Positions 28,462 to 39,362 are shown, numbered from the stretch's first letter. The stretch: DNA of 64,000 nt from Thermodesulfobacteriota bacterium (GCA_040756475.1 JBFLZB010000003.1:3965-67964); one strand, 5' to 3'. Notes: generated by a model not told the origin, from the letters alone. Numbers and translations: made by a program.

Positions 28462-31260
28462 TCATGCGCGCCTCGCACCCCGGTCTGCTCGCGACGATTC
28501 TTTCACAGGCTCTCCGTCGAAAGAGTACGCGAACTCTCCTCCCTCCACCGTCACCTCGACCCGTGCCACCGGCTGACCCTCCATCATGTGCGTGAGGATC
28601 TCCTGACTCAGGGCCGGCAGCACGGTGTTGGTGAGAATCGCGTCAACCATGCGGCCGCCGCTCTCGAGCTCGGTGCACCTGCTCACGATCAGTTTCACCA
28701 CCTCGTCGCTGTACATGAAAGGCACCTTGTGGTTCTGGGCGATGCGCTTCTGGATGCGTCCGAGTTGGAGTCGGGTGATGAGGCCGATGACCTCGTCGGT
28801 GAGGGGGTAGAAGGGGACGACCACGAGGCGCCCGAGGAGGGCGGGGGGGAAGACCTTGAGGAGGGGCTCGCGCAGGGCCTTGCCCAGGGCCTCCGGGTCG
28901 GGCAGGAGGTCCGGGTCGGAGCACACGCTCGTGATGAGCTCGGTGCCCGCGTTGGTGGTGAGGAGGATCAGGGTGTTCTTGAAGTCGATGACCCGGCCCT
29001 CCCCGTCCTCCATCCAGCCCTTGTCGAAGACCTGGAAGAAGATCTCGTGGACGTCGGGGTGGGCTTTTTCCACCTCGTCCAGGAGCACCACGCTGTAGGG
29101 CCGGCGCCGCACGGCCTCGGTGAGCACGCCCCCCTCCCCGTAGCCCACGTAGCCGGGGGGGGCCCCCTTGAGGGTGGAGACCGTGTGGGCCTCCTGGAAC
29201 TCGCTCATATTGATGGTGATGACGTTTTGCTCCCCGCCGTAGAGCACCTCGGCCAGGGCCAGCGCGGTCTCGGTCTTCCCCACCCCCGAGGTGCCGGCCA
29301 GGAGGAAGACGCCGATGGGCTTGTTGGGGTTGTCGAGGCTCGCCCGGGAGGTCTGGATGCGCTTGGCGATCATCTCCAGGGCGTGGCGCTGGCCCACGAT
29401 GCGCTGCTCCAGGAGGTCGGGGAGCTTGAGCACGGTCTCGATCTCGTTTCGGACCATGCGCCCCACGGGAATGCCGGTCCAGTCGCCGACCACCGAGGCC
29501 ACGGCCTGGGCGTCGACGCTGGGCAAGATGAGGGGCCGCTCCCCCTGCAGAGCCGCGAGTTGTGCCTGCACGTCGCGAAGTTGCTGCAACAGCTCCTCGG
29601 GCTTCTCCGCCGGCGGTTCGTCGGCCGGCCCCGCGTCCACCGACACGGCCTGGGCCGCGGCCTCTGCCGCCTTCTCCAGGTCGCTCTCGGTGCCCTCCAC
29701 CACGCCGATTCTGCCCCGCAGCGTCGCGCGCAGCTCCAGGATGCGGTCCACGAGGTCCTTTTCCGCCTTCCACCGCTCCTCCAGGCCGGCGAGCCGTTCC
29801 CCCTCTGCGGCAAGCTTCTCGGAAGCCTCCGACTCCCGGGCGGCGGTCTCGACCCCCACGGCCTTCTCGCGCCCGATGATCTCGAGCTCGGTCTCCAGGG
29901 CCTCGATGCGCCGGCGGCTGTCGTCCACCTCGGCGGGGACGGCGTGCTGGCTGATGGCCACCCGGGCGCAGGCGGTGTCGAGGAGGCTCACGGACTTGTC
30001 CGGGAGCTGCCGGGCAGGGATGTAGCGGTGGGAGAGGCGCACCGCGGCCTCCAGGGCCTCGTCGAGCACCTGCACCCGGTGGTGCTTCTCCAGGGTCGAG
30101 GCCAGCCCCCGCATCATGAGGATGGCCTTGTCTTCGCTGGGCTCGGGGACCTGGATCACCTGGAAGCGCCGGGTGAGCGCCGGGTCCTTCTCGATGTGCT
30201 TCTTGTACTCGGCCCAGGTGGTGGCGGCCACGGTGCGAAGCGTTCCCCGGGCCAGGGCGGGCTTGAGGAGGTTGGCCGCGTCCCCCGTGCCGGCGGCGCC
30301 CCCGGCGCCGATCAGGGTGTGGGCCTCGTCGATGAAGAGGATGATGGGCTGGGGCGAGGCCTGGACCTCCTCGATCACCTGGCGCAGGCGCTGCTCGAAC
30401 TCCCCCTTCATGCTCGCCCCCGCCTGGAGGAGGCCCACGTCGAGGTTTCGCAGGACCACGTCCCGGAGCGGCGGCGGCACGTCGCCCGCGGCGATGCGCA
30501 GCGCAAACCCCTCCACCACCGCCGTCTTTCCCACCCCGGCCTCGCCGGTGAGGATGGGGTTGTTCTGGCGCCGCCGCATGAGGATGTCGACGATCTGGCG
30601 GATCTCGTTGTCCCGGCCCACGATGGGGTCGAGCTCCCCCTTGCGGGCCCGCTCGGTCAAGTCCACCGAGAATCGGTGCAGGGCTTCCTGCTTGCCGAGC
30701 TGGGGCGGGGGCATGGCGCCGCTGGCCTCGCCGGGTGCGGCCCCGCCCCCCACCCGGAAGCCGTCCTGGGCGGAGAGGGCGGCCTCGGGGGAGCCGGCCA
30801 CCACCTCGGCAAAGCGGTCGGTCAAGGCATCCACTTTGACCTTCCCGAACTCCGCAGAGATCCCCAGGAGCGCATGAGTGAGCCCCTTGGTCTTGAGGAT
30901 GCCCACCACCAGGTGGCCCGTGCGGACCTGGGACTCCCCGAAGAGCAGCGTCCCATAGACCCAGCCCCGCTCCACGGCCTCCTCCAGGTGGGAAGAGAGG
31001 TCCGAGATGGAGGTGGAGCCCCGGGGCAGCCGGTCCAGGGTCTCGGTGAGGTCCCGGGCCAGGCGCGACGGCTCCAGGCCGAAGTGCTTGACGATGCCGT
31101 GGAGGTCGGAGTTGGGCAGCTGGAGGATCTGGTGGATCCAGTGGACGAGCTCCACGTAGGGGTTACCCCGCATCTTGCAGAAGACCGTGGCGCTCTCGAT
31201 GGCCTGGTAGCCCAGGCGATTGAGCTTGCCGAACAGGGCGACGCGGCTGATGTCACTCAT
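28462..31260 (-). CDS. clpV: T6SS AAA+ ATPase ClpV (TssH)
   Basis: MSDISRVALFGKLNRLGYQAIESATVFCKMRGNPYVELVHWIHQIL ClpV N-domain. Two Walker A sites (GEAGVGKTA, GTSGVGKTE). 932 aa. Confidence 0.95.
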   Translation of the reverse strand: MSDISRVALFGKLNRLGYQAIESATVFCKMRGNPYVELVHWIHQILQLPNSDLHGIVKHFGLEPSRLARDLTETLDRLPRGSTSISDLSSHLEEAVERGWVYGTLLFGESQVRTGHLVVGILKTKGLTHALLGISAEFGKVKVDALTDRFAEVVAGSPEAALSAQDGFRVGGGAAPGEASGAMPPPQLGKQEALHRFSVDLTERARKGELDPIVGRDNEIRQIVDILMRRRQNNPILTGEAGVGKTAVVEGFALRIAAGDVPPPLRDVVLRNLDVGLLQAGASMKGEFEQRLRQVIEEVQASPQPIILFIDEAHTLIGAGGAAGTGDAANLLKPALARGTLRTVAATTWAEYKKHIEKDPALTRRFQVIQVPEPSEDKAILMMRGLASTLEKHHRVQVLDEALEAAVRLSHRYIPARQLPDKSVSLLDTACARVAISQHAVPAEVDDSRRRIEALETELEIIGREKAVGVETAARESEASEKLAAEGERLAGLEERWKAEKDLVDRILELRATLRGRIGVVEGTESDLEKAAEAAAQAVSVDAGPADEPPAEKPEELLQQLRDVQAQLAALQGERPLILPSVDAQAVASVVGDWTGIPVGRMVRNEIETVLKLPDLLEQRIVGQRHALEMIAKRIQTSRASLDNPNKPIGVFLLAGTSGVGKTETALALAEVLYGGEQNVITINMSEFQEAHTVSTLKGAPPGYVGYGEGGVLTEAVRRRPYSVVLLDEVEKAHPDVHEIFFQVFDKGWMEDGEGRVIDFKNTLILLTTNAGTELITSVCSDPDLLPDPEALGKALREPLLKVFPPALLGRLVVVPFYPLTDEVIGLITRLQLGRIQKRIAQNHKVPFMYSDEVVKLIVSRCTELESGGRMVDAILTNTVLPALSQEILTHMMEGQPVARVEVTVEGGEFAYSFDGEPVKESSRADRGARRA

Positions 31261-31296
31261 GGGTCAACTCCCTTGCGGGTGCGGAAGGTGCGCGGG

Positions 31297-32328
31297 TTAC
31301 GGCCCCGCCCCGAGCGGATCCAGGTAGAGCTCCGCCGGGTCCTCTTGAAGGGGCGCGGTGGTACACCAGGTGGTCCAGCCCAGCTGGGCCCCCTCGCCCA
31401 AGCGCAGGGGGGGCACGTCTTCCTTCTTCAGGGCGACCTTCACGTCCCAGGCGAGTTCGTCGCCGATGTAGCCCCGGATCAGGGCGCTCAGGCGCCGCAG
31501 GCTCTCGCCCCCCGGGAGCATCCGCTGGTAGTCGGCCAGGGTCAGCGGCCCCAGGACGATCCGGAACTTCTGCTGGTAGTCCCACACCCGGGCCCCGGCG
31601 ATGGCGGTGGCGCCCAGGGTGCCCGTGTCGGGCGACTCCCCCAGACGGCAGCGGGAGCTCTCGGGGAGCTCGATCCACTGGCCGACGAACGGCTCGATGG
31701 CCACGGGCATCCCGAAATACCCGGAGACGAGCGCCCGCAGCCCATCCGCGTGCCGGGTGTGGCACGCGAACTGCCCGGCGTAATGGAGCTTGGCGAGATC
31801 GGGCAGGGCATCCCGGTGCCGCAAGGAGGGCATCCCCAGGCCGCACAGGGACCCGACGTAGAGGGCGAAGCGGTCGGCCTCGGGCCGGTCGAACTCCACG
31901 GTGGGTTGGGCATTGGCCCAGGCGCGGTAGAAGACGGACAGGAGGCGGTGGTGGAAGAGATCGGCGAACCGGGCGAAGGTGGGGTCGTCGTTCTGGCGCA
32001 GCCGGTTTCGGGCGTACTCGGTGAGGTGGAGCGGCAGCGGCCCGTTGGGCCCGAAGAGCCCCAGGAAGAAGACCTCCAGGCGGGCCGGCCCGTCGGACGG
32101 CCCCGAACGGAAGGAAGCCAGGGCGGCGGGCGCAAAGGCCAAGCTCGGCTCCTGCCCCAGGCGCACCGGGTCGGCGCTCGCCCGGGCCGACTGGCCCAGC
32201 CGGGGACGGTCCTCGTGGGCGCACTCCAGGCGGCGTAGCGCCGAGAAGAAGCCGAAACGGTAGGGTTCCTCCTCCAGTGCCCGCAGAAACGCTACAGCGC
32301 GGGCCTCTGGCCCAGCTTCACCGGCCAT
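31297..32328 (-). CDS. tssG: T6SS baseplate subunit TssG (ImpH)
   Basis: EEPYRFGFFSALRRLE...RPRLGQS....DPVRLGQEPSLAF signature. 37-nt overlap with the tssF 3' end. Confidence 0.9.
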   Translation of the reverse strand: MAGEAGPEARAVAFLRALEEEPYRFGFFSALRRLECAHEDRPRLGQSARASADPVRLGQEPSLAFAPAALASFRSGPSDGPARLEVFFLGLFGPNGPLPLHLTEYARNRLRQNDDPTFARFADLFHHRLLSVFYRAWANAQPTVEFDRPEADRFALYVGSLCGLGMPSLRHRDALPDLAKLHYAGQFACHTRHADGLRALVSGYFGMPVAIEPFVGQWIELPESSRCRLGESPDTGTLGATAIAGARVWDYQQKFRIVLGPLTLADYQRMLPGGESLRRLSALIRGYIGDELAWDVKVALKKEDVPPLRLGEGAQLGWTTWCTTAPLQEDPAELYLDPLGAGP

Positions 32329-39275: not shown

Positions 39276-39333
39276 GGGAGATCCTCGGCTCCAGGTGTTC
39301 GGTCTTCCCGCGGGGCATCTCCTGCCTGGCTGC

Positions 39334-39362
39334 AAATAGAACACGCGTCCATCAACTGTCAA
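39334..39362 (-). promoter_or_regulatory. candidate sigma-70 promoter of the T6SS operon (TTGACA-N17-CTATTT)
   Basis: The minus strand reads cattGACAgttgatggacgcgtgttCTATTTgca. It has a perfect -35 and a weak -10, about 60 nt upstream of the tssA ATG and just after the upstream terminator hairpin. Confidence 0.3.

Follow-up and report, generated by a model that had tools for sequence, protein, structure and literature searches.

A type VI secretion operon without anchor or spike genes, probably one part of an ordinary split H1-type system

How could a contractile injection machine assemble and fire if its operon encodes the sheath, tube, wedge and recycling ATPase, and neither the envelope anchor nor the spike? 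This question is raised by a type VI secretion system (T6SS) locus in a metagenome-assembled genome (MAG) labelled 'Thermodesulfobacteriota bacterium' (GCA_040756475.1). The stretch analysed here, hereafter the window, comprises 64,000 nucleotides (JBFLZB010000003.1:3965-67964) within one 69,898-bp contig of that MAG (proteins MEW6486439-MEW6486468); of ten window proteins, eight match proteins of this MAG exactly, and the cluster mates of its proteins at ≥90% identity are annotated Deferrisomatales. The original prediction left two possibilities standing, a split locus or an apparatus anchored and armed differently; comparative evidence favours the first, and nothing we found supports the second. 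We conclude that this is probably an ordinary split H1-type (T6SS-i3, TagJ-containing) system whose other half lies on another contig.

Gene identities were established through Pfam scans, NCBIfam models with cut-offs and PDB sequence matches, and reading frames in this sequence of 70% G+C were chosen by third-position GC. All nine genes named in the original prediction, tssA-tssB-tssC-hcp-tagJ-tssE-tssF-tssG-clpV, proved intact and co-oriented on the minus strand across 28462-39278:

38223-39278, minus strand: tssA, short TssA1-type, 351 amino acids (aa); ImpA_N, 3e-36; TIGR03363, 283 bits (cut-off 161)
37625-38149, minus strand: tssB, small sheath subunit; T6SS_VipA, 4e-59; TIGR03358; exact protein MEW6486464.1
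36116-37621, minus strand: tssC, large sheath subunit; VipB and VipB_2, 1e-138; best PDB match 5N8N_B, 906 bits
35539-36021, minus strand: hcp, tube protein, 160 aa; T6SS_HCP, 4e-43; the open reading frame (ORF) reaches 36108
34675-35475, minus strand: tagJ, ImpE/HsiE1-like accessory protein; ImpE, 2e-45, and TPR; PDB 4UQX/Y/Z (HsiE1), 4e-80
34160-34675, minus strand: tssE, gp25-like wedge protein; GPW_gp25, 3e-22; TIGR03357; TGATG overlap at both ends
32292-34160, minus strand: tssF, wedge; T6SS_TssF, 2e-241; TIGR03359
31297-32328, minus strand: tssG, wedge; T6SS_TssG, 1e-114; TIGR03347; overlaps tssF by 37 nt
28462-31260, minus strand: clpV/tssH, sheath-recycling AAA+ ATPase; TIGR03345, 1259 bits (cut-off 885); exact protein MEW6486457.1

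All nine proteins clear the curated thresholds of their families; TssA, B, C, E, F, G and H score above the cut-offs of the Pfam or NCBIfam equivalog models for T6SS-i, and Hcp is recognized through Pfam. Gene spacing is tight throughout. The overlaps previously described at tagJ/tssE and tssE/tssF are present, although the sequence there reads cTGATGg, with stop and start overlapping by 1 nt, rather than ATGA. An operon end at the TTG at 39362, which would give the longest tssA ORF, is less likely: the alignment of five relatives supports a 351-aa protein beginning at the ATG at 39278, most likely the true start, and the TTG is itself the opening triplet of a TTGACA that had been taken for a −35 element. 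For hcp, the start is probably at 36021, because the Hcp proteins of relatives are 160-161 aa long.

The block belongs to a recognizable class. Against solved sheaths, TssC scored 906 bits with Pseudomonas aeruginosa H1 TssC1 (5N8N_B) and at most 516 bits with every other structure; the nearest solved structure to TagJ is P. aeruginosa HsiE1 (4UQX-Z, 4e-80). As expected of H1/i3 systems, tagJ/HsiE is located between hcp and tssE, and ClpV matches TIGR03345 ('VI_ClpV1') at 1259 bits, in keeping with the ClpV1 class; this assignment to H1/i3 is one by best structure and family matches, as distinct from a formal SecReT6 or phylogenetic assignment. The P. aeruginosa H1-T6SS operon, tssA1-tssB1-tssC1-hcp1-tagJ1-tssE1-tssF1-tssG1-clpV1 (PA0082-PA0090), resembles the window in its nine genes, their order and its short TssA1-type TssA (TIGR03363). 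In P. aeruginosa, fha-tssJ-K-L-M-tagF-pppA-ppkA lies divergently beside tssA1, with vgrG1 after clpV1, whereas the window block is flanked on both sides by unrelated genes. The tssJ-K-L-M(-tagF) operon typical of H1/i3 loci is missing from beside tssA, and a GT4 glycosyltransferase gene stands upstream instead. One T6SS class is marked by the co-evolution of TssB, TssC, ClpV and TagJ/HsiE1; within it, TagJ binds the TssB N-terminus as well as ClpV (PMC4239648).

The claim that TssJ, TssK, TssL and TssM, together with VgrG and PAAR, are nowhere in the 64 kb was borne out by three kinds of search, with TagF and PAAR-like proteins added to the list. Pfam scans of ~50 main ORFs of the window detected no TssJ/K/L/M, VgrG, PAAR or TagF. 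Two highly dissimilar query sets of TssJ/K/L/M, VgrG, PAAR-like and accessory proteins, run by tblastn against all six frames, reached E = 0.099 at best, and our own profile hidden Markov models (built from 123 TssK, 59 TssL, 64 TssM, 42 TssJ, 19 VgrG, 27 TagF and 3 PAAR-like sequences) gave a best E of 0.86 against all 681 six-frame ORFs ≥40 aa long. The Pfam scans also found no FHA domain, and classical PAAR (PF05488) was tested through those scans only. Nor does the window hold pseudogene remnants of the missing core genes. By Pfam, both flanks instead contain only genes of housekeeping and envelope functions: the upstream flank carries GT4, AsnB, GltD, TGT, a GAF-sigma54 activator, PolA and HemB, and the downstream flank a GNAT acetyltransferase, a TPR-methyltransferase, a LysM/TPR protein, an AOR/ThiS cluster and genes for polysaccharide synthesis and export. 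The window covers nearly the whole of one contig, and in a fragmented MAG this leaves a small part of the genome visible; absence from 64 kb therefore informs little on the whole genome.

We next asked what related loci reveal about the gene junctions. An independent ENA assembly (ERZ4756921; a 54.9-kb contig, L001) is collinear with the window at ~90% nucleotide identity from gltD-asnB-GT4 across the GT4/tssA junction to clpV, followed by the GNAT and LysM/TPR genes. Because the GT4/tssA junction is common to both, it is real and older than their divergence, and the window lineage lost the adjacency of tssJKLM-vgrG before it separated from L001. An artefact of assembly or binning, in which a chimeric contig was misjoined at the tssA and clpV junctions, could have been suspected from the tendency of MAG contigs to chimerism and from the G+C of 0.62-0.64 in a cassette downstream of clpV (described below). 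That explanation is hardly credible given the same gltD-asnB-GT4-tssA…clpV-GNAT-LysM/TPR order in L001, with one continuous alignment over the GT4/tssA junction, and a Logan assembly that matches the central tssC-tssG part with equal identities.

The comparison with L001 also bears on whether the nine genes are a non-functional leftover after deletion of the tssJKLM-vgrG half. Such a remnant would account for the lack of anchor and spike genes in the 64 kb, and L001 has already lost the TPR-methyltransferase gene and is without the cassette. Yet all nine frames are open in two genomes that stand at a synonymous divergence (dS) of ~0.3 since the split, with 0 stop codons and 0 frameshifts over 10.8 kb in either, whereas neutral drift over that distance would be expected to yield one or the other within 10.8 kb. 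Nonsynonymous-to-synonymous ratios (dN/dS; Nei-Gojobori, window versus L001) range from 0.045 for tssC to 0.30 for tssG, at dS of 0.24-0.41, the same as or below those of the housekeeping neighbours (0.16-0.31 for the flanking gltD, asnB, GT4, GNAT and LysM/TPR genes). Decay of this kind is distinctly unlikely. Since both genomes inherited the split arrangement, purifying selection has maintained the block from the time of the split onwards. T6SS-i needs TssK, TssJ/L/M and VgrG/PAAR as partners, and purifying selection on the nine genes argues that these are supplied from elsewhere.

Where the partners may once have stood is indicated by the closest named relative, a Deferrisomatales MAG (GCA_029211085.1, JARGFW010000042.1; L008/L089), whose TssB is 92%, TssC 86%, TssF 71% and TssG 69% identical to that of the window. 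It carries a single co-oriented locus, tssJ-tssK-tssL-tssM-vgrG-DUF6484-HEAT-DUF2169-KS-like-PAAR-like-x-AHH toxin-x-tssA-…-clpV. In L089, TssK is encoded at 270-1670, TssL at 1660-2370, TssM at 2375-5809 and VgrG at 5932-7956. From tssA to clpV the order is that of the window; upstream of tssA, an anchor/spike/effector module occupies the place that the GT4 gene takes in the window. In a tree of relatives built from TssA, TagJ, TssE, TssF and TssG, L008/L089, with its complete single-locus system, adjoins the window lineage. In the next relative, a Deltaproteobacteria MAG (L003/L173), tssA is preceded by vgrG, DUF6484 and two PAAR-like modules, with no tssJKLM within 14 kb.

More distant relatives vary in the same respect. 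A Caldimonas-like contig (L007) shows the classical divergent tssJ-K-L-M-tagF adjoining tssA. Acidobacteria bacterium Mor1 (L006, CP011806.1), a complete genome, has the nine-gene block standing alone at ~606.9-617.6 kb, with unrelated genes in its 10-kb upstream flank. The block also stands alone in the draft genomes of Thiocystis violacea DSM 207 and Chromatium weissei DSM 5161. Among the matches listed, 53 species-representative genomes had a full 10 kb of sequence upstream of tssA; tssK/L/M were divergent there in 24 and co-oriented in 11, while the other 18, ten of them with vgrG within that distance, had no tssK/L/M within 10 kb upstream, a count that is not one of proven splits because the region downstream of clpV is mostly uncovered in these loci. 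On these counts, tssA…clpV is a separable, movable unit.

TssK/L/M of L089 (270-5809) are only 25-29% identical to the sets beside orthologous blocks (L007, L009-L088), in contrast to ~80-90% for TssB/C, and the nearest TssK relatives of L089, at 34-41% identity, occur in clusters of another subtype (TssC ~50%). The divergence of TssK/L/M against the conservation of TssB/C implies that the anchor/TssK and sheath/wedge modules have different histories.

Such interchangeability raises the possibility that the orphan block uses the TssJ/L/M, TssK and VgrG of another, complete T6SS cluster in the same genome. Anchor sets beside orthologous blocks are highly swappable by the identities just given, and in Mor1 the stand-alone block is followed by a convergent second, different sheath gene. 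This gene (L006 21002-21494; VipB, with a faint VipA match) lies right after a TPR-methyltransferase gene, so two T6SS-like clusters abut there. We nonetheless regard a shared anchor as unlikely for the window, because contacts between TssK and TssF/G and between TssA and the baseplate are normally system-specific and no second cluster was seen for this lineage.

The more radical alternative is that the i3-type sheath/wedge module dispenses with TssJ/L/M and TssK and relies on an anchor and spike system of a kind not yet recognized. What speaks for it is only the absence of these genes from the window, together with flanks that include envelope-related genes (GT4, the LysM/TPR protein at 23150-24865 and a polysaccharide export cluster). 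T6SS-iii of Bacteroidota, T6SS-iv and extracellular contractile injection systems (eCIS) are contractile sheath-tube-wedge machines that work without canonical TssJLM, and they are the only known kind that a differently anchored apparatus could resemble. Such machines are marked by sheath and baseplate families of their own, by alternative anchor or release genes and by the lack of T6SS-i-type ClpV and TagJ; all nine window proteins are instead T6SS-i equivalogs, ClpV and TagJ among them, and Pfam recognized no alternative anchor genes in the window flanks. Orthologous blocks in relatives adjoin canonical tssJKLM and vgrG. The flanking genes are ordinary and, the LysM/TPR gene in L001 aside, were not seen beside the block when more distant relatives were examined. 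A different anchor is thus highly improbable. It is also very improbable, if marginally less so, that the whole lineage, MAG and L001 alike, is without TssJ/L/M, TssK and VgrG and still keeps the i3 module under purifying selection; were this true, a canonical T6SS-i contractile module would be docked on, and armed by, an unrecognized envelope complex. A weaker form of this reading, hinted at by the 25-29% identity of the Deferrisomatales TssK/L/M to all other sets, would have one module serve several interchangeable anchors.

An ordinary split system is favoured over these alternatives because of the single locus in L008/L089, the loss of adjacency before the divergence from L001, the purifying selection on the block and a published precedent in Neisseria animaloris. 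Several observations weigh against it. In the nearest clade (window, L001, L089, L003, L012, L019 and L069), the available sequence showed tssJKLM only in L089. We found no TssJ/K/L/M, VgrG or PAAR protein of this MAG; the matches listed when a genome collection was scanned with the TssA alignment included neither this MAG nor close relatives of it, nor any Deferrisomatales locus; metagenome scans with the Deferrisomatales (L089) TssM and TssK yielded no TssM relatives and a best TssK identity of 41%; and 0 of the 20 DUF2169 clusters checked for this MAG's accession range matched it. MAGs are incomplete, and absence from a bin proves nothing either way. Likewise, none of the proteins recovered with the spike and accessory proteins of L008 (including DUF6484 and DUF2169) as queries could be attributed to the window's MAG. 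A contig carrying tssM-tagF-HEAT-DUF2169 (L172, P0290) was set aside, as its TssM is of proteobacterial type and shows no tie to this lineage.

For the split system we propose the following course of events. The block would supply the TssB/C sheath, the Hcp tube, the TssE/F/G wedge, a TssA1-type TssA, and ClpV with its recruiter TagJ, transcribed from a dedicated promoter ahead of tssA and translationally coupled at the TGATG junctions. It would be physically separated from the units for TssJ/K/L/M and VgrG/PAAR, and we infer that the tssJKLM and vgrG/PAAR genes lie on another contig of the same genome. Firing would require the apparatus to dock, by way of TssK, onto a TssJ/L/M membrane complex and to be nucleated on a VgrG/PAAR hub.

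This partition has precedents. In the T6SS-Bi of N. animaloris, cluster 1 reads tagF-tssA-B-C-D-impE-E-F-G-H, while tssJKLM form cluster 2 ~60 kb away and vgrG with a chaperone forms cluster 3 more than 30 kb away (PMC10210955). As in the window, tssA…clpV of this i3-like system stands alone as one cluster; N. animaloris differs in belonging to another phylum, in having tagF before tssA (the window has none) and in that its other clusters were seen in complete genomes, the window being one contig. The core genes of Neisseria T6SS-A also occupy two loci (PMC10210955), as does the i4 cluster of Xanthomonas (PMC9048695). In view of these published splits, the partition seen in the window is a known organization for i3-type T6SS.

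The upstream end of the operon is consistent with independent transcription. Upstream of tssA lie the following elements:

39334-39390, minus strand: a hairpin after the GT4 gene (39368-39390), then TTGACA-N17-CTATTT (39334-39362), ~85 nt upstream of the tssA ATG

Both had been proposed as marking the operon's start, and both are literally present, but a consensus scanner for sigma-70 promoters and terminators called neither there, nor anything else at the operon ends. The hairpin folds at -16.1 kcal/mol (z -1.46), no better than 16 of 200 shuffles, and the −10 element is poor. In L001 and L003, as in the window, the TTGACA lies ~85 nt ahead of the tssA start, a shared placement that would fit, if only faintly, a promoter belonging to the block. 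A sigma-54 promoter was also considered and rejected: none was found upstream of tssA at ≤2 mismatches, and window-wide counts equalled chance. Separately, a GAF / sigma-54-interaction / HTH_8 enhancer-binding protein is encoded at 46559-48169 (minus strand), 7 kb upstream of tssA.

Downstream of clpV the picture is less tidy. The unit had been described as bounded on both sides, but its downstream end is not clean and is probably not at clpV, owing to a TPR-methyltransferase gene at 24907-26277. From clpV down to and including that gene, four genes follow:

27624-28181, minus strand: cassette ORF-A, 185 aa, directly upstream of ORF-B
26787-27593, minus strand: cassette ORF-B, 268 aa, an HExxH protein with a YHExRHxEQ motif
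26284-26754, minus strand: GNAT acetyltransferase, 156 aa (Acetyltransf_1), with a 156-aa orthologue after clpV in L001
24907-26277, minus strand: TPR and S-adenosylmethionine (SAM)-methyltransferase protein, 456 aa (TPR, Methyltransf_23/12/11), absent from L001

Relative to L001, the window contains two extra segments, 26683-28531 and 24734-26283, the latter with the TPR-methyltransferase gene. The window TPR-methyltransferase is 54% and 52% identical to the gene after clpV in L003 and L006 (Mor1), respectively, and a TPR-methyltransferase follows clpV with one variable gene between them in L003 (19236-20597), L006 (19677-20984) and L007 (20969-end). Its hosts thus span a Deltaproteobacteria MAG (L003), Acidobacteria Mor1 (L006), a Caldimonas-like contig (L007) and the window. 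This succession of clpV, a variable gene and the TPR-methyltransferase, common to the window and three distant relatives, is unlike the arrangement in P. aeruginosa. To our knowledge, a TPR and class-I SAM-methyltransferase protein is not a named T6SS accessory gene. As the TPR-methyltransferase recurs as a neighbour in this T6SS subtype, the T6SS-linked unit probably extends downstream to 24907, and it may include the GNAT gene. Beyond the TPR-methyltransferase gene, a peptidoglycan-binding LysM / CHB_HEX_C / Fn3_assoc / TPR protein of 571 aa (23150-24865, minus strand) is a conserved neighbour of the T6SS block in L001 and the window alike.

The segment at 26683-28531, which contains ORF-A and ORF-B, has a G+C of 0.62-0.64 against 0.70 elsewhere and is not in L001. 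Described earlier as a foreign cassette, the segment looks like T6SS cargo, and the locus would then not be entirely unarmed. ORF-B has no Pfam match and no PDB sequence match, and its family is rare, with 50 clusters at the 50%-identity level in a set of 1.84 billion representatives. The YHExRHxEQ motif is invariant in 20 aligned family sequences, and in 5 of 7 longer homologues the ORF-B domain lies C-terminal to eCIS_core (DUF4157). AlphaFold2 (AF2) modelled ORF-B confidently (pLDDT 91.7), with no significant PDB fold match by Foldseek, and Mor1 carries an Aspzincin_M35 protein in the slot that matches ORF-B's. We infer that ORF-B is a putative zinc-metallopeptidase-like effector with a candidate new fold. 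ORF-A, with no Pfam or PDB match and a poor AF2 single-sequence model (pLDDT 41), could be its partner, as an adaptor, an immunity protein or a second effector.

The remainder of the window carries other functions. A polysaccharide cluster at 380-15214 includes four genes for epimerases/dehydratases, two for UDP-glucose/GDP-mannose dehydrogenases and one for a Poly_export protein of 1258 aa that has several SLBB domains (5 SLBB and 3 SLBB_2 stretches). The minus-strand genes at 15557-23078 encode two ThiS-like proteins, a tungsten-type aldehyde:ferredoxin oxidoreductase, a PP-loop ATPase, an AIR-carboxylase-like protein and a chorismate mutase/prephenate dehydrogenase. Long ORFs at 4154-5716, 53393-54937, 58303-59688 and 19024-19800 lie in high-GC stretches and have no Pfam match and an ambiguous frame signal.

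Read as a split system, the locus adds a Thermodesulfobacteriota/Deferrisomatales example of a T6SS-i3 broken along operon boundaries, and otherwise matters little. It illustrates why absence from one MAG contig should not be taken as absence from the genome. For T6SS specialists, the comparison suggests that tssA…clpV is a conserved mobile unit, paired across phyla with very divergent TssK/L/M sets, and that the slot between clpV and the TPR-methyltransferase gene holds variable metallopeptidase-like genes that are candidate effectors.

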